Positions 1,317-16,969 of a DNA stretch of 16,969 bases are shown in pieces. How positions within the stretch are numbered: the stretch's first letter is position 1; each line of letters begins with the position of its first letter. A program made the position numbers and the translations under genes. Source of the DNA: a virus. Taxonomy: Duplodnaviria; Heunggongvirae; Uroviricota; Caudoviricetes. Location: the IMG/VR virus record IMGVR_UViG_2663763054_000010; one strand, given 5' to 3'. The notes under the pieces are model-generated. The model saw only the letters and a list, made by a program, of their open reading frames with translations, did not search any database and was not told where the DNA came from.

Positions 1317-1340
1317 CCCGCTTCGGCGGGTTTTTGTTTT
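1317..1340 (+). terminator. rho-independent terminator after hok (stem CCGC-UUCG-GCGG + T-tract)
   Basis: GC stem with UUCG tetraloop followed by TTTTTGTTTTT. Confidence 0.5.
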
Positions 1341-1466
1341 TATTTTCAACGCGTTTGAAGTTTTAGATGGTGCCGGAATAGAATCAAAAATACTTAAGTA
1401 GCGCGCAGGGAGAAGAGGGATGGACCCCGAACAGGGGAGTGCTATTTATCTGGAAGGATTCTGTTG

Positions 1467-1748
1467 ATGAAAATCGAAGAATTACGTGAAATTTTTAGTG
1501 AAGATGGCCTCTATACTGTGCGCGTTGAGAATGGCGCTATTGTCAGCCACTGCCTTCCAGACTACACAATTCTGATAATTCAGCCGTCTTTGCCAGCAGG
1601 CACGGGCGGCGCTCTCACGCATTTAAATCTGATTGGTACCAGCATCCCCCATGCACTGAAGAACAGGCCGAATGGCTCATTCAGTGTTACCGCAGGCGCG
1701 GATGCGAGGTTAAAAAAGCCCTTAGCCTCGACTACCGTCACTGGATAA
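1467..1748 (+). CDS. small prophage protein (93 aa); by position possibly Rem-like (recollection of Qin order hokD-rem-ydfU, not verified)
   Basis: ORF with ATG at 1467 (track starts at TTG 1464); identical copy at 7722-8003. Confidence 0.5.
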   Translation: MKIEELREIFSEDGLYTVRVENGAIVSHCLPDYTILIIQPSLPAGTGGALTHLNLIGTSIPHALKNRPNGSFSVTAGADARLKKPLASTTVTG

Positions 1749-1823
1749 TCTCCGTCAGGCTCCCTTACTCCGAACGGCCAACGCGTCCGTCCCGCACATT
1801 CCAGCAACGGATCTGGAGGTAAT

Positions 1824-2882
1824 GTGCGGGTATTACTTCGACCTGTTCTGGTACCGGAACTCGGTCTGGTTATCGTTAAGCCAGGCCGTGAATCAATGTC
1901 AGCATTCCATAACGGCAGAATACTGGTGGAGCCGGAACCAAAAAGCATGCGTAATCTGCCGTCCGGGGTCGTTCCTGCCGCTCGCCAGCCGCTGGTGGAA
2001 GACAAAACATTGCTGCCGTTTTTCAGTAACGCACGGGTGATTCGTGCTGCTGGTGGTGCTGGTGCATTGTCTGACTGGCTGTTGCGCCATATTAAATCCT
2101 GCCAGTGGCCACACGGCGATTATCATCACAGCGAAACCGTCATTCACCGTTATGGTACCGGCGCAATGGTGTTGTGCTGGCACTGCGACAACCAGCTGCG
2201 TGACCAGACATCCGAATCACTCGAGCAACTTGCTCATCAAAACCTGTCAGCATGGATGATTGACGTCATCGGTCACGCAATAAGCGGTACGCAGGAGCGT
2301 GAATTATCTCTGGCTGAATTATCCTGGTGGGCGGTCCGCAATCAGGTGGCGGACGCGCTACCGGAAGCGGTATTACGTCGTTCGCTGGGGTTGCGTGCGG
2401 AAAAAATTCGCTCTGTGTACAGTGAAAGCGACATCATACCGGGAGAGCAGACAGCCACCAGCATACTGAAGCAGCGCACAAAAAATATTGCGTTACTGCC
2501 TCACGTCCACCAGCAACAGAACCCACCACAGGAAAAGACGGTGGTCAGCATTGCCGTTGATCCGGAGTCACCGGCTCAGTATCTCCAGCGCCAGAAATCA
2601 CAACGGGAAGAGATGCCTGTATACACGCGCTGGGTAAAAACGCAGAAATGCATGACGTGTGGCAATCAGGCAGATGATCCGCATCACATCATTGGTCATG
2701 GACTGGGAGGGATGGGAACAAAGGCTGATGATTTGTTTGTTATTCCGTTATGCCGTAAATGCCGTAACGAACTACATGCCGGAGTAAAAGATTTTGAAGA
2801 GAAACACGGCAGTCAGCTGTTGTTGCTGATTCGTTTTTTAATGCACGCGAGAAATTCGGGTGTTCTGAAGTGGAAAGCATAA
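1824..2882 (+). CDS. YdfU-like (DUF968-type) prophage protein with C-terminal HNH-like zinc-finger nuclease motif
   Basis: GTG start 4 nt after GGAGG; C-terminus CMTCGNQADDPHHIIGHGLGG...PLCRKCRNELH (CxxC...HH...CxxC...H). Confidence 0.65.
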   Translation: MRVLLRPVLVPELGLVIVKPGRESMSAFHNGRILVEPEPKSMRNLPSGVVPAARQPLVEDKTLLPFFSNARVIRAAGGAGALSDWLLRHIKSCQWPHGDYHHSETVIHRYGTGAMVLCWHCDNQLRDQTSESLEQLAHQNLSAWMIDVIGHAISGTQERELSLAELSWWAVRNQVADALPEAVLRRSLGLRAEKIRSVYSESDIIPGEQTATSILKQRTKNIALLPHVHQQQNPPQEKTVVSIAVDPESPAQYLQRQKSQREEMPVYTRWVKTQKCMTCGNQADDPHHIIGHGLGGMGTKADDLFVIPLCRKCRNELHAGVKDFEEKHGSQLLLLIRFLMHARNSGVLKWKA

Positions 2883-3263
2883 ATGACCGAGCGCATAGAA
2901 TTTGTTTTACCTTACCCGCCGACGGTGAACACTTACTGGCGTCGTCGTGGCAGCACATATTTTGTATCAAAAGCCGGGGAGCGTTATCGCCGGGCAGTGG
3001 CGCTTATTGTTCGCCAGCAGCGGCTGAAATTAAGCCTGTCCGGAAGGTTGGCAATAAAAATTATTGCAGAACCACCGGATAAGCGCCGCCGTGACCTGGA
3101 CAATATTCTGAAAGCGCCGCTGGATGCGCTGACGCATGCGGGGTTGCTAATGGACGATGAGCAGTTTGATGAAATCAATATCGTTCGTGCTCAGCCAGTA
3201 TCTGGTGGACGTCTGGGGGTGAAGATTTATCCCATAATGCTTGAAGGGCAGGTCAAAAAATGA
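2883..3263 (+). CDS. rusA: RusA-family Holliday junction resolvase (variant a)
   Basis: ATG immediately after upstream TAA; RusA signature ...PPDKRRRDLDNILKAPLDALTHAGLLMDDEQ... Confidence 0.85.
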   Translation: MTERIEFVLPYPPTVNTYWRRRGSTYFVSKAGERYRRAVALIVRQQRLKLSLSGRLAIKIIAEPPDKRRRDLDNILKAPLDALTHAGLLMDDEQFDEINIVRAQPVSGGRLGVKIYPIMLEGQVKK

Positions 3264-4006
3264 AACTGGAAGATTTACCGAAATACTACTCCCCAAAATC
3301 CCCCGGCCTGACTGATGCATCGGCCTCAACGTCGAAAGATGCGCTGAGTATCACTGATGTGATGGCCGCGCAGGGCATGACACAGAATCGGGCTGAGATG
3401 GGGGTTTCTGCGTTCCTTGGGAAAATGGGCATTAGTATGAATGACAGAGAGCGGGCAACAGAATTGCTGACAGAATATGCACTCAGTCGGTGTGATCGCG
3501 TGGCGGCGTTAAGAAAACTCCCGGCAGAAATAAAACCGGCAGTGATGCGTATTATGGCTTCGTATGCGTTTGAAGATTATGCCCGTAGCGCGGCGAGCAA
3601 AAAACAGTGCCCCTGCTGTCACGGAAAAAAATTTATTGAAAGCGAGGTTTTTACAAACAAGATCCAGTATCCGGATGGTAAGCCGCCGGTATGGGCAAAG
3701 TGTACGAAAGGTGTGTATCCGTCTTACTGGGAAGAATGGAAAAAAGTCAGGGAGGTGGTAAAAGTTGCCTGTCCGGAGTGTGGCGGAAAGGGTGAGGTTT
3801 CCACCGCCTGTAAGGATTGCCGTGGGCGTGGTGTCGCCATTCATCGTGAAGAGTCGGTAAAACGTGGTATGCCTGTTATCAGAGACTGCCAGCGTTGTGG
3901 TGGTCGTGGCTATGAAAGACTACCATCAACGGAGGCATTTAATGCTATATGCGAGGTGACAAACCAGATAACACGCGCGTCATGGGAAAAAACAGTTAAG
4001 AAATTA
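3260..4006 (+). pseudogene. Q-like late antiterminator (variant a), 3' end replaced by IS2 after codon ~249; track ORF 3260-4093 has an IS-derived tail
   Basis: Identical to 9515-10261 then diverges at the IS2 terminus TGGATTTGCCCC (4007). Confidence 0.7.
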
Positions 4007-4017
4007 TGGATTTGCCC

Positions 4018-4923
4018 CTATATTTCCAGACATCTGTTATCACTTAACCCATTACAAGCCCGCTGCCGCAGATATTCCCGTGGCGAGCGATAACCCAGCG
4101 CACTATGCGGATGCCATTCGTTATAATGCTCGAACGCCTCTGCAAGGTTCTTTGCTGCCGTTAACCCGTCTGGTTTGGGCATGATACTGATGTAGTCACG
4201 CTTTATCGTTTTCACGAAGCTCTCTGCTATTCCGTTACTCTCCGGACTCCGCACCGCCGTGTTCTTCGGTTCAAGTCCCAACATCCGGGCGAACTGGCGT
4301 GTTTCATTAGCCCGGTAGCATGAACCATTATCCGTCAGCCACTCCACTGGAGACGACGGAAGATCGTTGCCGAAGCGGCGTTCCACCGCTCCCAGCATGA
4401 CGTCCTGTACTGTTTCACTGTTGAAGCCGCCGGTAGTCACCGCCCAGTGCAGTGCCTCACGATCACAGCAGTCCAGCGCGAACGTGACACGCAGTCTCTC
4501 TCCGTTATCACAGCAGAACTCGAACCCGTCAGAGCACCATCGCTGATTGCTTTCTTTCACGGCCACTCTGCCTGTATGTGCCCGTTTCGATGGCGGTACA
4601 GCAGGTTTTCGCTCAAGCAACAGCGCATTCTGGCGCATGATCCGGTAAACACGTTTGGCATTGATCGCAGGCATACCATCAAGTTCTGCCTGTCTGCGAA
4701 GCAGCGCCCATACCCGACGATAACCATACGTGGGCAGCTCTCCGATAACATGGTGTATACGGAGAAGCACATCCGTATCATCAGTGTGACGACTGCGGCG
4801 GCCATCCATCCAGTCATCGGTTCGTCTGAGAATGACGTGCAACTGCGCACGCGACACCCGGAGACAACGGCTGACTAAGCTTACTCCCCATCCCCGGGCA
4901 ATAAGGGCGCGTGCGCTATCCAC
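4018..4923 (-). CDS. insD: IS2 transposase OrfB (InsD), 301 aa
   Basis: Protein [34 protein letters not shown]... matches recalled IS2 InsD. Confidence 0.9.
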
Positions 4924-5246
4924 TTTTTTGCCCGTCCATATTCAACGGCTTCTTTGAGGAGTTCATTTTCCATCGTTTTCTTGCCGAGCAGGCGCTGGAG
5001 TTCTTTAATCTGCTTCATGGCGGCAGCAAGTTCAGAGGCAGGAACAACCTGTTCTCCGGCGGCGACAGCAGTAAGACTTCCTTCCTGGTATTGCTTACGC
5101 CAGAGAAATAACTGGCTGGCTGCTACACCATGTTGCCGGGCAACGAGGGAGACCGTCATCCCCGGTTCAAAGCTCTGCTGAACAATTGCGATCTTTTCCT
5201 GTGTGGTACGCCGTCTGCGTTTCTCCGGCCCTAAGACATCAATCAT
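4881..5246 (-). CDS. insC: IS2 OrfA (InsC), 121 aa
   Basis: [24 protein letters not shown]... from internal ATG of track ORF 4881-5291. Confidence 0.85.
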
Positions 5247-5472
5247 CTGTACTCCAATGACTAGTCTAAAAACTAGTATTAAGACTATCACTTATTTAAG
5301 TGATACTGGTTGTCTGGAGATTCAGGGGGCCAGTCTACGGACATTTTCTGCCTGTGGACCAGGAAAGTGCACGGGTGCTTTCCACTCCCATGAAGCCCGG
5401 CAATCCGCGCAGATACAGTAATAAACGAACTGACAGCAGTAAGATGGAGCGTTTCTTTTGAACAACCAGACA

Positions 5473-5715: not shown

Positions 5716-6089
5716 TGCGCCATGAGTTTATTTTACCTTATCCGCCGACGGTGAATACTTACTGGCGACGTCGTGACAACACATATTTTGTATCAAAAGC
5801 CGGTGAGCGTTATCGCCGGGATGTGGCGCTTATTGTCCGTCAGCAGCGACTGAAATTAAGCCTGTCCGGAAGACTGGCGATAAAGATTATTGCAGAGCCA
5901 CCGGATAAGCGCCGTCGTGACCTGGACAATATCCTGAAAGCACCACTGGATGCACTGACACATGCGGGAGTGTTAATGGACGATGAGCAGTTTGATGAAA
6001 TCAATATCGTTCGTGCTCAGCCAGTATCTGGTGGACGTCTGGGGGTGAAGATTTACCCCATAATGCATGAAGAGCAGGTCAAAAAATGA
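5715..6089 (+). CDS. rusA: RusA-family Holliday junction resolvase (variant b)
   Basis: 124 aa, same signature as 2883-3263 but divergent N-terminus (MRHEFILPYPP). Confidence 0.85.
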   Translation: MRHEFILPYPPTVNTYWRRRDNTYFVSKAGERYRRDVALIVRQQRLKLSLSGRLAIKIIAEPPDKRRRDLDNILKAPLDALTHAGVLMDDEQFDEINIVRAQPVSGGRLGVKIYPIMHEEQVKK

Positions 6090-6907
6090 AACTGGAAGAT
6101 TTACCGAAATACTACTCCCCAAAATCCCCTTGCCTGACCGATGCATCGGCCTCAACGTCAAAAGATGCGCTGAGTATCACTGATGTGATGGCCGCGCAGG
6201 GCATGACACAGAATCGGGCTGAGATGGGGTTTTCTGCGTTCCTGGGGAAAATGGGCATCAGTATGAATGACAGGGCGCGGGCAACAGAATTACTGGCAGA
6301 TTATGCACTCAGTCGGTGCGATCGTGTGGCGGCGTTGAGAAAACTTCCGGCAGAAATAAAACCGGTAGTGATGCGCATTATGGCTTCGTACGCTTTTGAG
6401 GATTATGCCCGCAGCGCAGCGAGTAAAAAGCAGTGCCCTTGTTGCTATGGGGAAAAATTTATTGAAAGCGTAGTTTTTACAAACAAGGTCCAGTATCCGG
6501 ATGGTAAGCCGCCGGTATGGGCAAAGTGTACGAAAGGTGTGTATCCGTCTTACTGGGAAGAATGGAAAAAAGTCAGGGAGGTGGTAAAAGTTGCCTGTCC
6601 GGAGTGTGGCGGAAAGGGTGAGGTTTCCACCGCCTGTAAGGATTGCCGTGGGCGTGGTGTCGCCATTCATCGTGAAGAGTCGGTAAAACGTGGTATGCCT
6701 GTTATCAGAGACTGCCAGCGTTGTGGTGGTCGTGGCTATGAAAGACTACCATCAACGGAGGCATTTAATGCTATATGCGAGGTGACAAACCAGATAACAC
6801 GCGCGTCATGGGAAAAAACAGTTAAGAAATTTTATGATGCGCTGGTGACCCGGTTTGATATTGAAGAAGCATGGGCTGAGCGGCAGTTAAAAAAGGTAAC
6901 TAGGTAA
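6086..6907 (+). CDS. Q-like late antiterminator (variant b), 273 aa with CxxC zinc-finger repeats
   Basis: ATGA overlap with rusA; CPCC..CPECGGKG..CKDCRGRG..CQRCGGRG motifs; followed by promoter + short terminator (PR'/tR' layout). Confidence 0.65.
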   Translation: MKLEDLPKYYSPKSPCLTDASASTSKDALSITDVMAAQGMTQNRAEMGFSAFLGKMGISMNDRARATELLADYALSRCDRVAALRKLPAEIKPVVMRIMASYAFEDYARSAASKKQCPCCYGEKFIESVVFTNKVQYPDGKPPVWAKCTKGVYPSYWEEWKKVREVVKVACPECGGKGEVSTACKDCRGRGVAIHREESVKRGMPVIRDCQRCGGRGYERLPSTEAFNAICEVTNQITRASWEKTVKKFYDALVTRFDIEEAWAERQLKKVTR

Positions 6908-7585: not shown

Positions 7586-7721
7586 ATTTTGTTTTTATTT
7601 TCAACGCGTTTGAAGTTTTAGATGGTGCCGGAATAGAATCAAAAATACTTAAGTAGCGCGCAGGGAGAAGAGGGATGGACCCCGAACAGGGGAGTGCTAT
7701 TTATCTGGAAGGATTCTGTTG

Positions 7722-8003
7722 ATGAAAATCGAAGAATTACGTGAAATTTTTAGTGAAGATGGCCTCTATACTGTGCGCGTTGAGAATGGCGCTATTGTCA
7801 GCCACTGCCTTCCAGACTACACAATTCTGATAATTCAGCCGTCTTTGCCAGCAGGCACGGGCGGCGCTCTCACGCATTTAAATCTGATTGGTACCAGCAT
7901 CCCCCATGCACTGAAGAACAGGCCGAATGGCTCATTCAGTGTTACCGCAGGCGCGGATGCGAGGTTAAAAAAGCCCTTAGCCTCGACTACCGTCACTGGA
8001 TAA
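7722..8003 (+). CDS. small prophage protein, copy of 1467-1748
   Basis: Identical protein. Confidence 0.5.
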   Translation: MKIEELREIFSEDGLYTVRVENGAIVSHCLPDYTILIIQPSLPAGTGGALTHLNLIGTSIPHALKNRPNGSFSVTAGADARLKKPLASTTVTG

Positions 8004-8078
8004 TCTCCGTCAGGCTCCCTTACTCCGAACGGCCAACGCGTCCGTCCCGCACATTCCAGCAACGGATCTGGAGGTAAT

Positions 8079-9137
8079 GTGCGGGTATTACTTCGACCTG
8101 TTCTGGTACCGGAACTCGGTCTGGTTATCGTTAAGCCAGGCCGTGAATCAATGTCAGCATTCCATAACGGCAGAATACTGGTGGAGCCGGAACCAAAAAG
8201 CATGCGTAATCTGCCGTCCGGGGTCGTTCCTGCCGCTCGCCAGCCGCTGGTGGAAGACAAAACATTGCTGCCGTTTTTCAGTAACGCACGGGTGATTCGT
8301 GCTGCTGGTGGTGCTGGTGCATTGTCTGACTGGCTGTTGCGCCATATTAAATCCTGCCAGTGGCCACACGGCGATTATCATCACAGCGAAACCGTCATTC
8401 ACCGTTATGGTACCGGCGCAATGGTGTTGTGCTGGCACTGCGACAACCAGCTGCGTGACCAGACATCCGAATCACTCGAGCAACTTGCTCATCAAAACCT
8501 GTCAGCATGGATGATTGACGTCATCGGTCACGCAATAAGCGGTACGCAGGAGCGTGAATTATCTCTGGCTGAATTATCCTGGTGGGCGGTCCGCAATCAG
8601 GTGGCGGACGCGCTACCGGAAGCGGTATTACGTCGTTCGCTGGGGTTGCGTGCGGAAAAAATTCGCTCTGTGTACAGTGAAAGCGACATCATACCGGGAG
8701 AGCAGACAGCCACCAGCATACTGAAGCAGCGCACAAAAAATATTGCGTTACTGCCTCACGTCCACCAGCAACAGAACCCACCACAGGAAAAGACGGTGGT
8801 CAGCATTGCCGTTGATCCGGAGTCACCGGCTCAGTATCTCCAGCGCCAGAAATCACAACGGGAAGAGATGCCTGTATACACGCGCTGGGTAAAAACGCAG
8901 AAATGCATGACGTGTGGCAATCAGGCAGATGATCCGCATCACATCATTGGTCATGGACTGGGAGGGATGGGAACAAAGGCTGATGATTTGTTTGTTATTC
9001 CGTTATGCCGTAAATGCCGTAACGAACTACATGCCGGAGTAAAAGATTTTGAAGAGAAACACGGCAGTCAGCTGTTGTTGCTGATTCGTTTTTTAATGCA
9101 CGCGAGAAATTCGGGTGTTCTGAAGTGGAAAGCATAA
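8079..9137 (+). CDS. YdfU-like protein with HNH-like motif, copy of 1824-2882
   Basis: Identical protein. Confidence 0.65.
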   Translation: MRVLLRPVLVPELGLVIVKPGRESMSAFHNGRILVEPEPKSMRNLPSGVVPAARQPLVEDKTLLPFFSNARVIRAAGGAGALSDWLLRHIKSCQWPHGDYHHSETVIHRYGTGAMVLCWHCDNQLRDQTSESLEQLAHQNLSAWMIDVIGHAISGTQERELSLAELSWWAVRNQVADALPEAVLRRSLGLRAEKIRSVYSESDIIPGEQTATSILKQRTKNIALLPHVHQQQNPPQEKTVVSIAVDPESPAQYLQRQKSQREEMPVYTRWVKTQKCMTCGNQADDPHHIIGHGLGGMGTKADDLFVIPLCRKCRNELHAGVKDFEEKHGSQLLLLIRFLMHARNSGVLKWKA

Positions 9138-9518
9138 ATGACCGAGCGCATAGAATTTGTTTTACCTTACCCGCCGACGGTGAACACTTACTGGCGTCGT
9201 CGTGGCAGCACATATTTTGTATCAAAAGCCGGGGAGCGTTATCGCCGGGCAGTGGCGCTTATTGTTCGCCAGCAGCGGCTGAAATTAAGCCTGTCCGGAA
9301 GGTTGGCAATAAAAATTATTGCAGAACCACCGGATAAGCGCCGCCGTGACCTGGACAATATTCTGAAAGCGCCGCTGGATGCGCTGACGCATGCGGGGTT
9401 GCTAATGGACGATGAGCAGTTTGATGAAATCAATATCGTTCGTGCTCAGCCAGTATCTGGTGGACGTCTGGGGGTGAAGATTTATCCCATAATGCTTGAA
9501 GGGCAGGTCAAAAAATGA
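9138..9518 (+). CDS. rusA: RusA-family resolvase (variant a), second copy
   Basis: Identical to 2883-3263. Confidence 0.85.
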   Translation: MTERIEFVLPYPPTVNTYWRRRGSTYFVSKAGERYRRAVALIVRQQRLKLSLSGRLAIKIIAEPPDKRRRDLDNILKAPLDALTHAGLLMDDEQFDEINIVRAQPVSGGRLGVKIYPIMLEGQVKK

Positions 9519-10336
9519 AACTGGAAGATTTACCGAAATACTACTCCCCAAAATCCCCCGGCCTGACTGATGCATCGGCCTCAACGTCGAAAGATGCGCT
9601 GAGTATCACTGATGTGATGGCCGCGCAGGGCATGACACAGAATCGGGCTGAGATGGGGGTTTCTGCGTTCCTTGGGAAAATGGGCATTAGTATGAATGAC
9701 AGAGAGCGGGCAACAGAATTGCTGACAGAATATGCACTCAGTCGGTGTGATCGCGTGGCGGCGTTAAGAAAACTCCCGGCAGAAATAAAACCGGCAGTGA
9801 TGCGTATTATGGCTTCGTATGCGTTTGAAGATTATGCCCGTAGCGCGGCGAGCAAAAAACAGTGCCCCTGCTGTCACGGAAAAAAATTTATTGAAAGCGA
9901 GGTTTTTACAAACAAGATCCAGTATCCGGATGGTAAGCCGCCGGTATGGGCAAAGTGTACGAAAGGTGTGTATCCGTCTTACTGGGAAGAATGGAAAAAA
10001 GTCAGGGAGGTGGTAAAAGTTGCCTGTCCGGAGTGTGGCGGAAAGGGTGAGGTTTCCACCGCCTGTAAGGATTGCCGTGGGCGTGGTGTCGCCATTCATC
10101 GTGAAGAGTCGGTAAAACGTGGTATGCCTGTTATCAGAGACTGCCAGCGTTGTGGTGGTCGTGGCTATGAAAGACTACCATCAACGGAGGCATTTAATGC
10201 TATATGCGAGGTGACAAACCAGATAACACGCGCGTCATGGGAAAAAACAGTTAAGAAATTTTATGATGCGCTGGTGACCCGGTTTGATATTGAAGAAGCA
10301 TGGGCTGAGCGGCAGTTAAAAAAGGTAACTAGGTAA
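9515..10336 (+). CDS. Q-like late antiterminator (variant a), intact 273 aa
   Basis: Same as 3260-4006 then continues with the native C-terminus ...KKFYDALVTRFDIEEAWAERQLKKVTR. Confidence 0.65.
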   Translation: MKLEDLPKYYSPKSPGLTDASASTSKDALSITDVMAAQGMTQNRAEMGVSAFLGKMGISMNDRERATELLTEYALSRCDRVAALRKLPAEIKPAVMRIMASYAFEDYARSAASKKQCPCCHGKKFIESEVFTNKIQYPDGKPPVWAKCTKGVYPSYWEEWKKVREVVKVACPECGGKGEVSTACKDCRGRGVAIHREESVKRGMPVIRDCQRCGGRGYERLPSTEAFNAICEVTNQITRASWEKTVKKFYDALVTRFDIEEAWAERQLKKVTR

Positions 10337-10908: not shown

Positions 10909-11967
10909 ATGCTTAATACTGTAAAAATATCCAGTTGTGAGTTAATCAACGCCGACTGCCTGGAATTTATCCGGTCGTTACCCGAAAATTCTGTTGACCT
11001 GATAGTCACGGACCCGCCGTACTTTAAAGTGAAGCCTGAGGGCTGGGATAACCAGTGGAAGGGCGACGATGATTACCTGAAGTGGCTGGACCAGTGTCTG
11101 GCGCAGTTCTGGCGGGTGCTGAAACCTGCCGGAAGTCTTTACCTGTTCTGTGGTCATCGCCTGGCATCTGATATCGAAATCATGATGCGTGAACGCTTCA
11201 GTGTGCTGAACCATATTATCTGGGCGAAGCCGTCCGGACGCTGGAACGGATGCAACAAGGAAAGCCTGCGGGCGTATTTCCCCGCCACAGAGCGCATTCT
11301 GTTCGCGGAACATTATCAGGGGCCGTATCGTCCGAAAGATGCCGGGTATGCGGCGAAGGGCAGTGCACTGAAACAGCATGTGATGGCCCCGCTGATTTCT
11401 TACTTTCGTGATGCGCGAGCTGCCCTGGGGATAACGGCAAAACAGATTGCAGATGCCACAGGAAAGAAAAACATGGTGTCGCACTGGTTCAGTGCCGGTC
11501 AGTGGCAGTTGCCGAATGAAAGCGATTATCTGAAATTACAGGCGCTGTTTGCCCGGGTGGCAGAAGAGAAGCATCGGCGTGGTGAACTGGAAAAGCTCCA
11601 CCACCAGCTGGTGGATACGTATACCTCACTGAACCGGCAGTATGCGGAGCTGCTGAGTGAATATAAACATCTGCGGCGGTATTTTGGCGTGACGGTGCAG
11701 GTGCCGTATACCGATGTGTGGACGCATAAACCGGTGCAGTTCTATCCCGGGAAACATCCGTGCGAAAAACCGGCAGAAATGCTGCAGCAGATAATCAGCG
11801 CTAGCAGTCGTCCGGGTGACCTGATTGCAGATTTTTTCATGGGGTTGGGTTCGACAGTGAAAGCGGCACTGGCGCTCGGGCGTCGTGCAATTGGCGTTGA
11901 GCTGGAGACTGAACGTTTTGAGCAGACGGTTCGGGAAGTACAGGATTTAGTCAGCCAGAACGGATGA
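10909..11967 (+). CDS. DNA methyltransferase, DPPY (N6-adenine/N4-cytosine) type with beta-class motif order; no cognate endonuclease seen (orphan)
   Basis: Motif IV DLIVTDPPYF near N-terminus, motif I DLIADFFMGLGST near C-terminus. Confidence 0.8.
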   Translation: MLNTVKISSCELINADCLEFIRSLPENSVDLIVTDPPYFKVKPEGWDNQWKGDDDYLKWLDQCLAQFWRVLKPAGSLYLFCGHRLASDIEIMMRERFSVLNHIIWAKPSGRWNGCNKESLRAYFPATERILFAEHYQGPYRPKDAGYAAKGSALKQHVMAPLISYFRDARAALGITAKQIADATGKKNMVSHWFSAGQWQLPNESDYLKLQALFARVAEEKHRRGELEKLHHQLVDTYTSLNRQYAELLSEYKHLRRYFGVTVQVPYTDVWTHKPVQFYPGKHPCEKPAEMLQQIISASSRPGDLIADFFMGLGSTVKAALALGRRAIGVELETERFEQTVREVQDLVSQNG

Positions 11968-12007
11968 TATTGAAGAATTAATTACGCGTCGTTATTATGC
12001 GGCTCCC

Positions 12008-12083
12008 GGCCCTTTAGCTCAGTGGTGAGAGCGAGCGACTCATAATCGCCAGGTCGCTGGTTCAAATCCAGCAAGGGCCACCA
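12008..12083 (+). tRNA. tRNA with CAU anticodon, tRNA-Ile2 (lysidine) type, ileX/ileZ-like
   Basis: Cloverleaf: acceptor GGCCCTT/AAGGGCC, anticodon loop CTCATAA, T-loop TTCAAAT, CCA end. Confidence 0.85.
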
Positions 12084-12090
12084 TCACATA

Positions 12091-12167
12091 CCGCCATTAG
12101 CTCATCAGGAAAGAGCGCCAGCCTTCGAAGCTGGCTGCGCGGGGTTCAAGTCCCCGATGGCGGTCCA
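12091..12167 (+). tRNA. tRNA-Arg, anticodon UCG as read
   Basis: Acceptor CCGCCAT/ATGGCGG, anticodon stem CCAGC/GCTGG with loop CTTCGAA, T-loop TTCAAGT, CCA end. Confidence 0.75.
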
Positions 12168-12180
12168 TTATCTGCATCAT

Positions 12181-12257
12181 GCGTTGTTAGCTCAGCCGGA
12201 CAGAGCAATTGCCTTCTAAGCAATCGGTCACTGGTTCGAATCCAGTACAACGCGCCA
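12181..12257 (+). tRNA. tRNA-Arg, anticodon UCU (reads rare AGA)
   Basis: Acceptor GCGTTGT/ACAACGC, anticodon loop CTTCTAA, T-loop TTCGAAT, CCA end. Confidence 0.85.
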
Positions 12258-12271
12258 CACTTATTTTCCCA

Positions 12272-12300
12272 GGCTCGCTTTTGCGGGCCTTTTTTTTAAA
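12272..12300 (+). terminator. rho-independent terminator after tRNA cluster
   Basis: AGGCTCGC-TTTT-GCGGGCCT stem (one mismatch) followed by T8. Confidence 0.5.
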
Positions 12301-12514
12301 TGTCTCACAATTCAGACGGTTGACAGTTGTCTGTTTTGCGGGGAGTTTGTTAAAAGAAACTGGCATGGTGAATCCCCCTGTGCGGAGGGGCAATCAGCGA
12401 GTAGGTATATGGGATAATCGCGGATTCAGGTGCTGGTACTGAATTCACCGGGAGGCACCCGGCATCATGCAATGGCACATAGCGCCACTCTCCAGCCCTC
12501 TCCGGAGGGGCTTT
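12293..12514 (+). other. conserved ~215-bp structured non-coding element, copy 1; candidate sRNA or leader ending in a hairpin
   Basis: Near-identical to 15947-16170; several GC stems; no ORF conserved between copies. Confidence 0.3.
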
Positions 12515-12744
12515 TCTGTGCCGGATACATCACAGTTTCTGGAACCTTAGGTACTACAGTATCAGTCAGGGTGCTATATTTTCAGATGTGATGAAAGCCT
12601 GTCAGCAGGCAGGGCGTATCGGAAATGACCCAGTAGAGAAAACGTTGACTCAGATACCGGTGCTGAGTTACCGGGAAACCGGCATCACATGACCGCTATC
12701 CTGAGGTGTACTGGCAATAGCGGACACTACCATTTGTTCTTTTT

Positions 12745-13563
12745 TTAAGCAGCCATCTGATGATATTTTTCCCTGAAGGCTGCCGGGGAGATATTCCCCA
12801 GACGAGAGTGACGACGCTGACGATTGTAGAAAATCTCAATGTATTCCCGTATTACTGAGATGGCTTCATCCCGGTTATTAAAACGATAGTGGCTCAGGCT
12901 CTCATTTTTCAGCGTTCCCCAGAAGCTTTCCATCGGAGCGTTGTCGTAACAGTTACCTTTACGCGACATTGATGTTTTCAGACCAGACTGCTCCTGTATG
13001 ACCCGGTAATCGTATGCGCAGTACTGTGAACCTCGATCAGAGTGGTGGATTAGCCCGGCAGGTGGGCGCTGGCTCCTGAGCGCCATAAACAGGGCTTTAC
13101 CTGTCAGCTCTTTTGTCATGCGCTCTCCCATGGCGTAGCCGACAATTTCGCACGTATAAACATCTTTGATGCCAGCGAGGTACAACCATCCCTCCTGTGT
13201 GGCAACATACGTCAGGTCCGCCACCCAGACCTGATTTGGTGCTGTAGGAGCGAACGTCTGGTTCAGCAGATTTGGCGCAACTGGCAGATTGTGGTTCGAG
13301 TTCGTAGTCGCTCTGAACTTGCGTTTCTGCTTACAGCGTAGCCTTAGCTCCTTACGAAGACGTGCCAGTCGGTCACGACCAACGATGATGCCATTCTCTG
13401 CCAGCTCCGTCTGGAGCCGCCGGGTTCCATATGTTTCGCGAGTGCGGATATGTGCCACCTTAATCTCCAGTTTTAGCCGCTCATCACTTTGTTTTCTGTC
13501 TGAGGGTTCATGCTGTACCCAGTTGTAATAACCGCTCCTGGATACACCAAATACCTGACACAT
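12745..13563 (-). CDS. IS3-family transposase OrfB (DDE integrase-like), 272 aa from first in-frame Met
   Basis: Recalled IS3-family OrfB features; normally expressed as an OrfAB frameshift fusion. Confidence 0.85.
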   Translation of the reverse strand: MCQVFGVSRSGYYNWVQHEPSDRKQSDERLKLEIKVAHIRTRETYGTRRLQTELAENGIIVGRDRLARLRKELRLRCKQKRKFRATTNSNHNLPVAPNLLNQTFAPTAPNQVWVADLTYVATQEGWLYLAGIKDVYTCEIVGYAMGERMTKELTGKALFMALRSQRPPAGLIHHSDRGSQYCAYDYRVIQEQSGLKTSMSRKGNCYDNAPMESFWGTLKNESLSHYRFNNRDEAISVIREYIEIFYNRQRRHSRLGNISPAAFREKYHQMAA

Positions 13564-13598
13564 CGCTTCAATGGGAAATTGTTGTCGCCATTGTTCGA

Positions 13599-13842
13599 TT
13601 AACGCGTATTTTTCAGCGACTCCTGTGCAAAATACGCTGTTGCTTTTTTTAATATATCTCGCTCAAGGCGAGCTTCATTTAACGCCTTACGCAGTTGCAG
13701 AATTTCAGATTCCAGTTCAGCCACCGTGCGGGAACCAGGAGTACCGAGCCCTTTTCTGGCGGCGGTAACCCATTGTCCTAAAGTGCCTTCAGGAAGAGAT
13801 AATCGGGAAGCGCCTTCACTGATCGAAAGTTGATTTTCAAAG
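13599..13842 (-). pseudogene. IS3-family OrfA, C-terminal part only (...ENQLSISEGASRLSLPEG...ILKKATAYFAQESLKNTR)
   Basis: Track ORF 13599-14000 is chimeric: 3' part is orfA, 5' part is antisense rusA. Confidence 0.7.
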
Positions 13843-14084
13843 CGACTGAAATTAAGCCTGTCCGGAAGACTGGCGATAAAGATTATTGCAGAGCCACCGG
13901 ATAAGCGCCGTCGTGACCTGGACAATATCCTGAAAGCACCACTGGATGCACTGACACATGCGGGAGTGTTAATGGACGATGAGCAGTTTGATGAAATCAA
14001 TATCGTTCGTGGTCAGCCAGTATCTGGTGGACGTCTGGGGGTGAAGATTTACCCCATAATGCATGAAGAGCAGGTCAAAAAATG
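13843..14084 (+). pseudogene. rusA: rusA (variant b) 3' fragment, lacking about the first 44 codons
   Basis: Matches 5848-6089 with one substitution (RAQPV to RGQPV); upstream replaced by the IS. Confidence 0.8.
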
Positions 14085-14936
14085 AAACTGGAAGATTTAC
14101 CGAAATACTACTCCCCAAAATCCCCTTGCCTGACCGATGCATCGGCCTCAACGTCAAAAGATGCGCTGAGTATCACTGATGTGATGGCCGCGCAGGGCAT
14201 GACACAGAATCGGGCTGAGATGGGGTTTTCTGCGTTCCTGGGGAAAATGGGCATCAGTATGAATGACAGGGCGCGGGCAACAGAATTACTGGCAGATTAT
14301 GCACTCAGTCGGTGCGATCGTGTGGCGGCGTTGAGAAAACTTCCGGCAGAAATAAAACCGGTAGTGATGCGCATTATGGCTTCGTACGCTTTTGAGGATT
14401 ATGCCCGCAGCGCAGCGAGTAAAAAGCAGTGCCCTTGTTGCTATGGGGAAAAATTTATTGAAAGCGTAGTTTTTACAAACAAGGTCCAGTATCCGGATGG
14501 TAAGCCGCCGGTATGGGCAAAGTGTACGAAAGGTGTGTATCCGTCTTACTGGGAAGAATGGAAAAAAGTCAGGGAGGTGGTAAAAGTTGCCTGTCCGGAG
14601 TGTGGCGGAAAGGGTGAGGTTTCCACCGCCTGTAAGGATTGCCGTGGGCGTGGTGTCGCCATTCATCGTGAAGAGTCGGTAAAACGTGGTATGCCTGTTA
14701 TCAGAGACTGCCAGCGTTGTGGTGGTCGTGGCTATGAAAGACTACCATCAACGGAGGCATTTAATGCTATATGCGAGGTGACAAACCAGATAACACGCGC
14801 GTCATGGGAAAAAACAGTTAAGAAATTCTATGATGCGCTGGTGACTCGGTTTGATATTGAAGAAGCATGGGCTGAGCGGCAGTTAAAAAAGGTAACTAGG
14901 TTGATTTTTCCGGAATCTGTGGTAAATTCGTCATAA
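14082..14936 (+). CDS. Q-like late antiterminator (variant b), 284 aa; an 8-bp deletion removes the normal stop and adds an 11-aa tail
   Basis: Same as 6086-6907 apart from a few substitutions; ...AGGTAACTAGGTAACAAGGTTG becomes AGGTAACTAGGTTG; ORF runs through the PR' -35/-10. Confidence 0.6.
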   Translation: MKLEDLPKYYSPKSPCLTDASASTSKDALSITDVMAAQGMTQNRAEMGFSAFLGKMGISMNDRARATELLADYALSRCDRVAALRKLPAEIKPVVMRIMASYAFEDYARSAASKKQCPCCYGEKFIESVVFTNKVQYPDGKPPVWAKCTKGVYPSYWEEWKKVREVVKVACPECGGKGEVSTACKDCRGRGVAIHREESVKRGMPVIRDCQRCGGRGYERLPSTEAFNAICEVTNQITRASWEKTVKKFYDALVTRFDIEEAWAERQLKKVTRLIFPESVVNSS

Positions 14937-14977
14937 CTATGGGCGTTTTATGCCTGACGTTAGAAGAGTTTCTACAA

Positions 14978-15000
14978 CCCGCCGCCGAGCGGGTTTTTTA
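14978..15000 (+). terminator. tR'-like terminator (third copy)
   Basis: CCCGC-loop-GCGGG + T6. Confidence 0.6.
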
Positions 15001-15038
15001 TTGCGGAATTAATTACGGACCGTTATTATTCTGCTCCC

Positions 15039-15114
15039 GGCCCTTTAGCTCAGTGGTGAGAGCGAGCGACTCATAATCGCCAGGTCGCTGGTTCAAATCC
15101 AGCAAGGGCCACCA
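15039..15114 (+). tRNA. tRNA (CAU), Ile2-type, second copy
   Basis: Identical to 12008-12083. Confidence 0.85.
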
Positions 15115-15121
15115 TCACAAA

Positions 15122-15201
15122 CCGCCATTAGCTTATCAGGAAGAGCAGACGACACGATAACAGGGTTGTTGGTGCGGGGGCGGGTCCCCGATGGCGGTCC
15201 A
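15122..15201 (+). pseudogene. degenerate tRNA (tRNA-Arg-like ends, anticodon arm and T-loop disrupted)
   Basis: Acceptor and D-arm as in 12091-12167, but the middle has no anticodon stem and the T-loop is GCGGGT. Confidence 0.55.
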
Positions 15202-15214
15202 TTATCGGTATTCA

Positions 15215-15291
15215 GCGTTGTTAGCTCAGCCGGACAGAGCAATTGCCTTCTAAGCAATCGGTCACTGGTTCGAATCCAGTACAGCGCGCCA
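15215..15291 (+). tRNA. tRNA-Arg (UCU), second copy, with one acceptor-stem change giving a U-G pair
   Basis: Same as 12181-12257 except ACAGCGC for ACAACGC. Confidence 0.8.
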
Positions 15292-15401
15292 TATTCATTC
15301 TTCCAGATTCCTTCCGGCAGAGCCTTATACTGAAATATACCTGGCTCAGGATATTGTTGAAAATATTTTATGTTTGTCAAAAATAAAAGTTCTGTTAAGT
15401 A

Positions 15402-15755
15402 TTGATTGAGTGTTTGTTATACGGTCTAATGGTTTTTTCAGCATTAAATATTTATCATTCATATGGTGTGGGTAGAGTGAATATTGATGAGGCGTCGGGG
15501 TGTTTCATCCTTAGGCAGCGTATTGATATAGTCAATGCAGCACGAGCAAAGGCCTTCAGCCGTTTGACAGTTTTGTTCTGTACTCCTGATCGTCTTTCGG
15601 GAAGAGACGTTATTATTCTGAATAGTGATGCTATACAGAGGGTTTGCGATGAGTTCATGGTTGCTAATTCAGAATTATTTGCTCTTGTTCAGGAGTACAA
15701 CAGAATAGCCAGGACCTGTGGTATGGATGAACTTCGGATTACTCATCTGGGGTAG
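15402..15755 (+). CDS. hypothetical protein in AT-rich cargo region; start codon uncertain (track start is TTG)
   Basis: 117-aa ORF; no recognisable motif. Confidence 0.3.
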   Translation: MIECLLYGLMVFSALNIYHSYGVGRVNIDEASGCFILRQRIDIVNAARAKAFSRLTVLFCTPDRLSGRDVIILNSDAIQRVCDEFMVANSELFALVQEYNRIARTCGMDELRITHLG

Positions 15756-15946
15756 ATACATATCTGGATTATCACCTGTTACGGTAAAAAGTGATTGCTT
15801 ACTGTTTTTGTGAATGGCATTGCAGCAGCCGGATAATGTCAGTGCTGGCTGACGGTGTGCTGGTGGCGGGTGTGGTGGTTGTTGCTTTCCCGTTGCTGAA
15901 AAAGAAAACGCCAGACTGTTAGCCGGGTATCAGTTAGCGGGAGAAA

Positions 15947-16170
15947 TTTTTAAATACTTCACAATTCAGGCGGTTGACTGTTGTCTGGTTTGCGGGGAGT
16001 TTGTTAAAAGAAACTGGCATGGTGAATCCCCCTGTGCGGAGGGGCAATCAGCGAGTAGGTATATGGGATAATCGCGGATTCAGGTGCTGGTACTGAATTC
16101 ACCGGGAGGCACCCGGCACCATGCAATGGCACATAGCGCCACTCTCCAGCCCCTCTCCGGAGGGGCTGTT
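15947..16170 (+). other. conserved structured non-coding element, copy 2
   Basis: Aligns to 12293-12514 with scattered substitutions; ends in perfect hairpin AGCCCCTC-TCCG-GAGGGGCT. Confidence 0.3.
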
Positions 16171-16202
16171 TATATTGATTTTGTCAGATGTGAGTAAACT
16201 CC

Positions 16203-16538
16203 TTATGGACTTTGTTGTTTTAGTCCATAAGGACATATTTGCAGAGTGCAACGGTTATTAAAGCATTCATTCAATACGTTATCTGTATTTGTAGGGCATT
16301 CCTGGCTATTTTTGATTGAATTCCAGAATGTTTTATTGAATGGTACTACGTTGTAAATGGTTACAGGTAGCACTTTGTTATTGAGCATGATGCCTGTGTG
16401 AGTCAGTGTAAATATACTTTCAGGAGGTAAGAAAGCATCCGATTGATACCAGATTATTAATTTTATTTTACTCCATATGACTGAAAAAGATATTCCGCAT
16501 GATGGCTGGATAACTGTATCAATCACAATCCACTTCAT
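16203..16538 (-). CDS. hypothetical protein (111 aa) in AT-rich region
   Basis: ORF only; 3' end coincides with a perfect inverted repeat (about 16202-16232). Confidence 0.25.
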
Positions 16539-16797
16539 TTAGTTTCCTTGTTTATGCCTTGCTGGTGATGTTCTGAAAAGTATAAATGATATTTTTGAAT
16601 GTAAACCATAGAGCAGAATTATTTTTCTGATGTTGTTTATTGTTTATTTAAATGCAGGGTGGTTTATATCTCGTCTTGTAGTTTATCCATGCATATCTGC
16701 TTGATAATCAGGTTTTTATTTAAGGTATGGTTTTGTGTTTTTTCTGTATTACATGTCAGGTATTTTAAAGAATTATTTTTCAGATGGTGGAAAGAAC

Positions 16798-16925
16798 CAT
16801 GGCATTTAAACACTATGATGTTGTCAGGGCGGCGCCGCCGTCAGATCTTGCGGAAAAGCTGACACATAAACTGAAAGAGGGCTGGCAGCCGTTTGGTAGT
16901 CCGGTGGCCATAACCCCTTATACCC
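16798..16925 (+). pseudogene. 5' part of a small prophage gene (MAFKHYDVVRAAPPSDLAEKLTHKLKEGWQPFGSP...), interrupted by the IS end
   Basis: GGTGGAAAG RBS before ATG 16798; frame runs into the IS terminus at 16926; motif resembles recalled DUF1737-type proteins (uncertain). Confidence 0.4.
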
Positions 16926-16969
16926 TGAGGTGTACTGGCAATAGCGGACACTACCATTTGTTCTTTTTT
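16926..16969 (-). mobile_element. IS3-family (IS600-like) element, right end only, cut by window end
   Basis: TGAGGTGTACTGGCAATAGCGGACACTACCATTTGTTCTTTTTT identical to 12692-12735. Confidence 0.75.

Follow-up and report, generated by a model that had tools for sequence, protein, structure and literature searches.

The viral sequence IMGVR_UViG_2663763054_000010 (Caudoviricetes), a stretch of 16,969 nt hereafter referred to as the window, contains at positions 12293-12514 and 15947-16170 two copies of a structured non-coding element. The computations presented here show to which family this element belongs, how it folds, that it does not code for protein, at what conserved distances its candidate promoter and its terminator lie and where it sits in the genome. 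They reveal an already catalogued prophage small RNA (sRNA), not a new kind of element: it is near certain that both copies belong to the STnc100 family. The best explanation for the element, which we consider probable but well short of secure, is that it encodes an Hfq-dependent, trans-acting prophage "moron" sRNA of this family, pairing with its targets via a variable linker. To the existing record this analysis adds a structural and positional map of the element, including a covariation-supported pseudoknot and a fixed position between the Q antiterminator gene and the lysis cassette.

A scan with Rfam 15 matched RF02076 (Gammaproteobacterial sRNA STnc100) to both copies, with 123.6 bits at 12334-12523 and 132.4 bits at 15988-16177 against a gathering score of 47 bits, both matches spanning model positions 1-206 of 206. 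STnc100 was the sole family to match the element at E up to 1 in the regions scanned (11950-12760 and 14900-16969). The 35-nt Northern probe for EcOnc05 of Escherichia coli O157 Sakai (Tree et al., 2014, supplement; PMC4104026) is the exact reverse complement of window positions 12392-12426, the EcOnc06 probe is one base off the window sequence, and Sakai prophage Sp4 is collinear with, and nearly identical to, window positions 12255-12513, from the last tRNA to the terminator. An earlier note on this DNA, made from the sequence alone, had described a structured non-coding element that it could not match to a known sRNA; the structure and the non-coding character stand, and the apparent novelty does not, STnc100 and EcOnc05 being already known. 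The same note had proposed an Rfam scan, a covariation analysis and recourse to Hfq crosslinking data; the scan returned the scores given above, and crosslinking and Northern data turn out to have been published for the identical Sakai sequence (PMC4104026).

Transcription, Hfq crosslinking, Hfq-dependent stability, partners from the sequencing of ligated interacting RNAs (RIL-seq) and seed position are all documented in the literature on identical or related sequences. STnc100 was first listed in Salmonella Hfq co-immunoprecipitation studies and has carried an sRNA label without an assigned function since 2008; a survey counts it among the most abundantly annotated sRNAs, likewise without an assigned function (PMC9029176). 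EcOnc05, from Sakai prophage Sp4, crosslinks to Hfq and gives a Northern band of ~222 nt, EcOnc06 (Sp17) gives a band of ~177 nt and EcOnc27 bands of ~235/247 nt, all three are clusters in Hfq crosslinking and analysis of cDNA (CRAC), and Tree et al. place these RNAs at the "moron" site in eight Sakai prophages (PMC4104026). Transferred to the window, the Hfq CRAC cluster reported for the Sakai RNA of identical sequence covers about 12395-12502. Strain EDL933 has 11 annotated STnc100 copies, all of them transcribed and one Northern-confirmed (PMC5331693). A copy located 75 nt downstream of stx2B overlaps EcOnc27/sRNA103, and sRNA103 overexpression raised fimZ and espA transcripts (PMC7873438, PMC12711010); sequence variants at this stx2B-adjacent site were among the best predictors of haemolytic uraemic syndrome (PMC12711010). 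STnc100 has also been detected in outer membrane vesicles of Shiga toxin-producing E. coli (PMC12370729), and a 2026 preprint links it to the enteropathogenic E. coli (EPEC) sRNAs PasD1 and PasD2 (Zhu et al., 10.64898/2026.05.13.724894), for which Hfq-dependent stability and RIL-seq partners have been reported (Pearl Mizrahi et al., 2021; PMC8550237).

The two window copies align from 12293/15947 to about 12513/16168 with ~96% identity, differing by seven substitutions and a 1-nt indel located in the terminator stem (the MAFFT figure is 92%, with the terminator-stem gap left unopened), and the regions flanking them are unrelated (43% identity upstream, 48% downstream). On sequence grounds, a 220-bp repeat of this similarity cannot be explained by chance. 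The structured cores defined below are identical at 106 of 107 bases, the sole change (T12465 versus C16119) converting a G-C pair of the closing stem to G-U. Copy 1 adjoins the terminator-like hairpin (12271-12290) of a first tRNA cluster (Ile-CAU, Arg-UCG, Arg-UCU), whose tRNA-Arg ends at 12257, and copy 2 begins 656 bp past a second tRNA cluster, whose tRNA-Arg ends at 15291. A terminator scan calls a terminator-like hairpin at the end of each copy (12494-12512 and 16147-16168). The earlier note had thus been accurate in reporting an element present twice with scattered substitutions, once right after the tRNA terminator and once about 650 bp past the second cluster, with a hairpin closing each copy.

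The core 16-mer ACCGGGAGGCACCCGG was used to retrieve homologues from species-representative genomes and viral contigs, and these were confirmed with nhmmer and covariance models. This yielded about 140 matches, 121-133 of them distinct, from 14 source genera (Escherichia, Salmonella, Kosakonia, Enterobacter, Klebsiella, Raoultella, Atlantibacter, Pluralibacter, Phytobacter, Cedecea, Superficieibacter, Trabulsiella, Scandinavium and Pantoea). Since the Rfam RF02076 model scores a sample of distant-genus and tandem homologues at 55-165 bits, the collected sequences are members of the known family. Of 5426 complete E. coli genomes, 2719 carry the E. coli-type sequence, at up to 12 places per genome. 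Among 50,697 phage records, 354 match the element; many lambdoid phages have no match, lambda included as far as the phage search shows.

The genomic setting was compared at 99 loci. Upstream on the same strand lie Q antiterminators of the PF03589 (25 loci), PF06530 (14) and DUF1133 (9) families, together with RusA and DUF968, and downstream on the same strand lie lysozyme PF00959 (27), a GH19-like endolysin (14), a DUF1737-SASA esterase (19) and holins of the PF04971 (23), PF16931 (13) and PF05449 (13) families. Because the neighbouring families vary from locus to locus, the constant feature is the position between Q and the lysis cassette. The collinear locus of E. coli 042 follows this arrangement, with a Q antiterminator and tRNAs upstream and DUF1737, holin and lysozyme downstream, and there, according to the Prokaryotic Genome Annotation Pipeline (PGAP), as in the window, the element faces a convergent iraM-like open reading frame (ORF); in the window this anti-adaptor ORF (16203-16538, minus strand) has its stop codon 35 nt from the copy 2 sRNA terminator. 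Tandem arrays of 2-6 copies are common, with at least three units in loci L144 and L160, four in L133 and five in the viral contig L203 (4370-5467 and 8370-8523, with an isrI-like Hfq-binding RNA, Rfam 60 bits, between units). The largest array comprises six units in 1.4 kb (L115, 3108-4495) on the 400-kb plasmid pAPP145_2 of Pantoea sp. App145.

The Rfam consensus helices (closing stem, hairpins A, C and D, and terminator) form in both window copies, and folding to minimum free energy (MFE) recovers the nested helices in both. Covariation was assessed for the closing stem (P1) and hairpin C on a model-based alignment of 121 distinct homologues (A4), and supports the helices across them. Changes on both sides were found in 7/8 pairs of P1 and 8/8 pairs of hairpin C; for the two helices ~90% of cells are paired, against 41-50% with the partners slid by 1-3 columns, and 0/500 shuffles reach the observed values. 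Within helices, G-U combinations outnumber A-C combinations by 149:53 and 205:37, a 3-5 fold excess that makes the plus strand, which is also that of the phage late operon, the strand of the folded RNA. Hairpins A (CCCCU[nnGCGG]AGGGG) and D (CCGGG[AGGCA]CCCGG) are nearly unvarying among the homologues, the invariance of hairpin D being partly a matter of ascertainment because the 16-mer search pattern lay within it. In the few diverged copies that were reached only via their neighbours (for example window copy 3, described below, and PasD1), hairpins A and D differ in sequence and still pair.

A further helix emerges between the 5-9 nt that follow hairpin A and the loop of hairpin C, which are complementary to each other and retain their pairing through many alternative sequence pairs, including CCAGUC/GACUGG, AUCAGC/GCUGGU or GCUGAU, CUGGUG/CACCGG, CUAGAC/GUCUAG, UGCUGAU/AUCGGCA and AGGCUAC/GUAGCCU. 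In an alignment-free test the mean best helix was 5.09 bp, versus 3.91 +/- 0.09 bp with permuted partners, and 0/300 permutations reached the observed value; the window of the 5' segment (S1) is imprecisely parsed in some sequences, which can only weaken the signal. On alignment A5, built with a second model in which the helix is nested, 6/6 pairs change on both sides, 88.3% are paired and each pair shows 5-6 pair types; as A5 was fitted to the pseudoknot structure, these counts are biased towards it and need to be weighed alongside the alignment-free test. The MAFFT alignment A2, which is not fitted in this way, gives 53.8% paired at slide 0 and 56.5% at +1, with subfamilies one column out of register, and A4 behaves likewise. 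Since hairpin C and the 6-bp helix cross, they represent either a pseudoknot or two mutually exclusive conformations. Covariation supports a 6-bp pseudoknot within the core, beyond the published secondary structures: the structure line that cmscan gives for RF02076 contains no pseudoknot, and the 2026 preprint mentions neither a pseudoknot nor covariation (10.64898/2026.05.13.724894).

Hairpin A CCCCUGUGCGGAGGGGC has a near duplicate in the E. coli-type terminator hairpin CCCCUCUCCGGAGGGGC (12375-12390 versus 12494-12512, and 16029-16044 versus 16147-16168), and the 3' arm of hairpin A could pair with the 5' arm of this terminator. A switch suggested by the likeness was dropped, as the terminators of other lineages are unrelated, and the likeness may be coincidental or lineage-specific. 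In addition, GTGAATCCCC may resemble the enterobacterial repetitive intergenic consensus (ERIC), and the junction may resemble a tRNA cloverleaf; neither likeness is relied on here. The positions of all elements of the three window copies are collected in Table 1.

Table 1. Parts of the STnc100-family copies in the window, with the basis for each assignment.
Feature	Position	Strand	Basis or details
Copy 1, candidate promoter	12327-12356	+	-35 TTGTCT 12327-12332, 18-nt spacer, TG 12348-12349, hexamer 12351-12356 (TGtTAAAAG); read from sequence
Copy 1, structured core	12363-12470	+	Rfam 123.6 bits; own model R1 102.9 bits; MFE fold shows same helices
Copy 1, helices	P1 12363-12370/12463-12470; A 12375-12379/12386-12390; C 12422-12429/12439-12446; D 12448-12452/12458-12462	+	
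Copy 1, pseudoknot strands	5' 12393-12398; 3' 12432-12437	+	AUCAGC with GCUGGU, the latter in hairpin C loop
Copy 1, variable linker AAUGGCACAUAGCGCCACUCUCC	12471-12493	+	Mostly single-stranded; candidate seed region
Copy 1, terminator hairpin and U-rich tail	12494-12518	+	Terminator scan; Sakai alignment
Copy 2, candidate promoter	15981-16010	+	TTGTCT 15981-15986, TG 16002-16003, TAAAAG 16005-16010; arguments as for copy 1
Copy 2, structured core	16017-16124	+	Rfam 132.4 bits; R1 106.9 bits; MFE fold
Copy 2, helices	P1 16017-16024/16117-16124; A 16029-16033/16040-16044; pseudoknot 16047-16052/16086-16091; C 16076-16083/16093-16100; D 16102-16106/16112-16116	+	
Copy 2, linker, terminator hairpin and weak U-tract	16125-16177	+	Linker 16125-16146, hairpin 16147-16168; terminator scan
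Third, diverged tandem copy	12576-12698	+	R1 31.8 bits; second model R2 50.9 bits, E about 4e-11
Third copy, parts	-10 TATATT 12575-12580; P1 12586-12593 with 12683-12690	+	

The third copy, which the earlier note had overlooked, follows copy 1 in tandem. It scores 21.8 bits (E 0.019) with RF02076, under the threshold, and its hairpins A and D have altered sequence and retain their pairing. The end of an IS600 element at about 12702 lies 11 nt past its closing stem, and with this insertion its linker and terminator were lost. A complete three-unit succession of copy, degenerate copy and copy occurs in the phage contigs L170, L143 and L198, with spacings of about 224 and 244 nt. The IS600 itself (about 12702-13865, minus strand; named from the PGAP annotation of a matching genome) truncates both the sRNA array and a rusA gene.

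The geometry of the gene boundaries was examined relative to P1 in 113 non-redundant homologues. In 66 of these a TAnnnT hexamer begins 8-14 nt upstream of P1, most often (39 cases) at exactly -10, compared with 8-22 in equal-sized control windows further upstream, and many carry a TTGACA-like -35 at 16-18 nt. A terminator-like hairpin followed by a T-run lies within 110 nt past P1 in 65/113, as opposed to 20 homologues when the reverse complement is scanned, and its median distance from P1 is 26 nt. The positions of promoter, linker and terminator are therefore constant while their sequences differ by lineage, as expected of an independently transcribed gene, which supports reading the element as a gene with its own promoter and terminator, the earlier note having seen a possible promoter at the start and a near-perfect hairpin at the end of each copy. 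In the E. coli type, TGtTAAAAG spans -15 to -7 relative to the predicted start, preceded by TTGTCT at a spacing of 18 nt. The extended -10-like element that had been noted before is retained here, and the TTGACA/TTGACT noted with it is doubtful as the -35, lying 25 nt from TGtTAAAAG, which is too far. The Rfam RF02076 model begins about 30 nt upstream of the likely +1, taking in the -10 region.

The 5' end and the seed can be placed by comparison with PasD1, a 173-nt RNA defined by RNA-seq and Northern analysis at NC_011601:1060260-1060432. Its 5' end as mapped coincides with the first G of GCAUGGUG, which is the P1 stem, and the seed deduced for it from RIL-seq, UGUGAG, falls within the linker at a distance of 4-5 nt from the terminator hairpin that follows, with chimeras mapping to linker and terminator. 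If the window RNAs follow the same plan, their 5' ends would be at about 12363 and 16017, and their candidate seeds would lie in the linkers, a segment that is not conserved across lineages. PasD1 and PasD2 of EPEC E2348/69 have the same architecture as the window copies (5' end at P1, pseudoknot, linker and terminator) and share their neighbourhood, with a DUF3927 ORF upstream and a SASA esterase downstream; PasD1 maintains the pseudoknot between the segment after hairpin A and the loop of hairpin C as AAUGAUC with GAUCAUU. The two groups do not match in sequence at hairpins A and D or in the linker, however, and the core model gives PasD1 34 bits versus 103-107 for the window copies, the Rfam model scoring PasD below threshold; the window copies are thus relatives of PasD, not PasD itself.

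STnc100 and the window copies share the same helices and the same prophage late-region location in lambdoid phages, and EcOnc05, EcOnc06 and EcOnc27 occupy the same position as the window copies, downstream of ileZ-argN-argO in the moron site. The Sakai EcOnc RNAs face a convergent anti-sRNA of the AgvB or AsxR type, whereas the window copies do not: no match to RF02702 or RF02703 (AgvB/AsxR) was found opposite them at E up to 1 in 11950-12760 or 14900-16969. Instead, copy 1 is followed by the degenerate tandem copy and IS600, and copy 2 by the convergent iraM-like ORF. A pseudoknotted body that stabilizes the RNA and presents a single-stranded seed has a working precedent in RydC, an Hfq-dependent sRNA of about 64 nt with a 5' seed. 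The window RNAs have no sequence relationship to RydC, and their candidate seed lies 3' of the 108-nt junction.

In the explanation that we favor, each copy would be a self-contained prophage moron gene, the window variant corresponding to EcOnc05 of Sakai prophage Sp4. A sigma-70 promoter would start transcription at the first base of the 8-bp closing stem, and the first ~108 nt would fold as a multi-helix junction locked by the internal pseudoknot, to be followed by a lineage-variable linker of ~25 nt and a Rho-independent terminator. The RNA, with a predicted length of ~155-180 nt, would be produced in lysogens without need of the late promoter and would be bound by Hfq, the linker pairing in trans with host or prophage mRNAs while the structured 5' domain buries the 5' end, probably conferring stability. 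For the window variant, the use of the linker as seed and the role assigned to the core are the parts of this scheme that we infer.

Several observations weigh against this explanation. A sigma-70 consensus scan calls no promoter at either copy, the simple scan missing the candidate of copy 1 because its hexamer lacks a T at position 6. The published O157 bands, at ~177-247 nt, are longer than the ~155-160 nt predicted between P1 and the first terminator, an excess that could stem from a 5' end further upstream or from read-through of weak terminators; the U-tracts are interrupted in both copies, that of copy 2 is poor, and the copy 1 terminator stem is weakened by the 1-nt deletion that distinguishes it from both copy 2 and Sakai Sp4. 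Thermodynamic z-scores are unremarkable (MFE -56.5 kcal/mol and z 0.01 for copy 1; -69.2 kcal/mol and z -2.5 for copy 2), and the case for structure rests on covariation because these energies are ordinary for the composition. Ribosome footprints differ widely among the EDL933 copies, with ribosome coverage values (RCV) from 0.04 to 3.2 (PMC5331693). Finally, about 40 core nucleotides are near-invariant across genera, which is stricter than a stability domain would seem to need.

This last feature is central to the main rival reading, which we regard as unlikely, that the pseudoknotted core is itself the functional part, binding a host or phage protein or a small ligand as a decoy, sponge, scaffold or sensor, with linker pairing secondary or absent. 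The core segments GUGAAUCCCCCUnnGCGGnGGGGC and CACCGGGAGGCACCCGGCAC are nearly invariant in at least 14 genera amid stems that covary freely, and a junction combined with a pseudoknot is a fold known from ligand- or protein-binding RNAs. The fixed genomic position, maintained regardless of which families of Q, holin and endolysin are present, and tandem arrays reaching six copies, which would suit a titrating RNA, are further points in its favor. The invariance of hairpin D is, however, in part an artefact of collecting with an exact 16-mer, and PasD is expressed and Hfq-bound even though it differs in hairpins A and D, as does the third window copy. No Rfam riboswitch or ribozyme matched at E up to 1 in 11950-12760 or 14900-16969. 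In its modular form, which we hold just as tentatively, the element would be a phage RNA in which the near-invariant core serves as a dedicated factor- or metabolite-binding module, either fused to a freely evolving seed linker or acting alone as a decoy or sensor.

It is improbable that the element acts in cis on the late operon, either as terminators that keep read-through transcription out of the lysis genes in lysogens or as elements for the processing or stability of the Q-antiterminated late mRNA, with the short RNA as a by-product. Such a role would be consistent with the location of the element, always between Q and the lysis cassette and on the strand of the late operon, and with the terminator that ends each unit, which arrays would stack. 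Yet terminators need neither a conserved 108-nt core nor a dedicated promoter at a fixed distance, the relatives yield abundant, discrete, Hfq-bound RNAs with trans partners, and many lambdoid phages, to go by the phage search, do without the element.

We consider it very improbable that the element encodes a small protein, whether from the short ORFs reported in the earlier note or from the minus-strand "hypothetical protein" (pseudo)gene that PGAP places over the element in E. coli 042, E2348/69 and others, and despite the ribosome footprints on some EDL933 copies (PMC5331693). No reading frame was found to be conserved among the homologues, stop-free frames across the core being scattered over all six frames; an internal variable segment of 14 to 57 nt has lengths modulo 3 distributed as 36/49/48, with no bias towards multiples of three; the ORFs are not the same in the two window copies; and the substitutions are compensatory for RNA pairing. 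The small-protein reading was accordingly rejected, and the non-coding character asserted in the earlier note is borne out. In RefSeq, a minus-strand "hypothetical protein", often flagged as a pseudogene, is annotated by PGAP over STnc100/PasD genes at L001 8175-8300, L244 151-371 and L245 148-371, and is usual in the 2719 E. coli genomes. Because the element lacks any conserved frame, this is probably a systematic mis-annotation.

No more credible is a late promoter leader, the counterpart of the lambda PR'-6S RNA-tR' unit on which Q acts: the element does lie downstream of Q and is similar in size to lambda 6S RNA (194 nt), but a separate terminator-like hairpin (14976-14995) stands right after Q and before the tRNAs, the element comes after the tRNA genes, by 656 bp in the case of copy 2, and forms tandem arrays, in Stx2 phages it follows stx2B, whereas PR' there precedes stx, and it accompanies three unrelated Q families. 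This reading was rejected for the position of the element, its tandem copies and the separate terminator that immediately follows Q. A riboswitch or cis-regulatory leader also looks unlikely, as the downstream neighbour is not constant (the convergent iraM-like ORF, another copy, the SASA esterase, or holins of three families).

Other features of the window concern the surrounding prophage sequence. A promoter-like TTGATT-16-TAAATT overlaps the 3' end of a Q gene (14895-14995), with the strong terminator-like hairpin at 14976-14995 about 55 nt later; to judge from the sequence, this looks like a real late promoter with a Q-overridden terminator, the promoter falling below the consensus-scan threshold. 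The ARAGORN call "tRNA-Met(CAT)" corresponds to ileZ (tRNA-Ile) in the annotation of Sakai and E. coli 042. The second tRNA cluster is without its middle tRNA-Arg(UCG) (15115-15214), the gene ends being recognisable and the interior replaced or degenerate, and in E. coli 042 likewise only tRNA-Ile and tRNA-Arg are annotated in that cluster. Between these tRNAs and copy 2 lies a 117-aa ORF (15402-15755, plus strand), in place of which E. coli 042 has a DUF3927 ORF.

A module comprising rusA and a Q antiterminator gene (PF03589-type) occurs four times within 17 kb (2891-4093, 5717-6907, 9146-10336 and 13841-14936) with 90-100% identity, and a 2.6-kb duplication relates about 1332-4000 to 7587-10250. 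The window is not contiguous in any complete E. coli genome, the best match collapsing it onto 9.5 kb with 81% coverage, and the repeated modules look like the outcome of rearrangement mediated by insertion sequences (IS) or of duplication of prophage remnants, perhaps in a Shigella-like genome. The first Q gene is truncated by a two-ORF IS3-family element at 4018-5291 (minus strand), which is perhaps IS2-like, and the start of another IS600 copy (16926 to the end) interrupts the DUF1737 ORF. A hok/sok type I toxin-antitoxin locus is present at 921-1246 (Rfam sok, 112 bits, 921-1096), with an overlapping Hok-like ORF at 1034-1246.

The STnc100 family matters in that half of the complete E. coli genomes carry it, yet it has no assigned function. 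The map presented here provides handles for mutagenesis, namely a 5' end at the closing stem, the pseudoknot, a variable linker as the probable seed, and the terminator, and the spurious PGAP "hypothetical protein" over the element is worth correcting. If the core did prove to be a binding module, the pseudoknot, the fixed position and the arrays would define an unrecognised class of structured phage RNA under the sRNA label.

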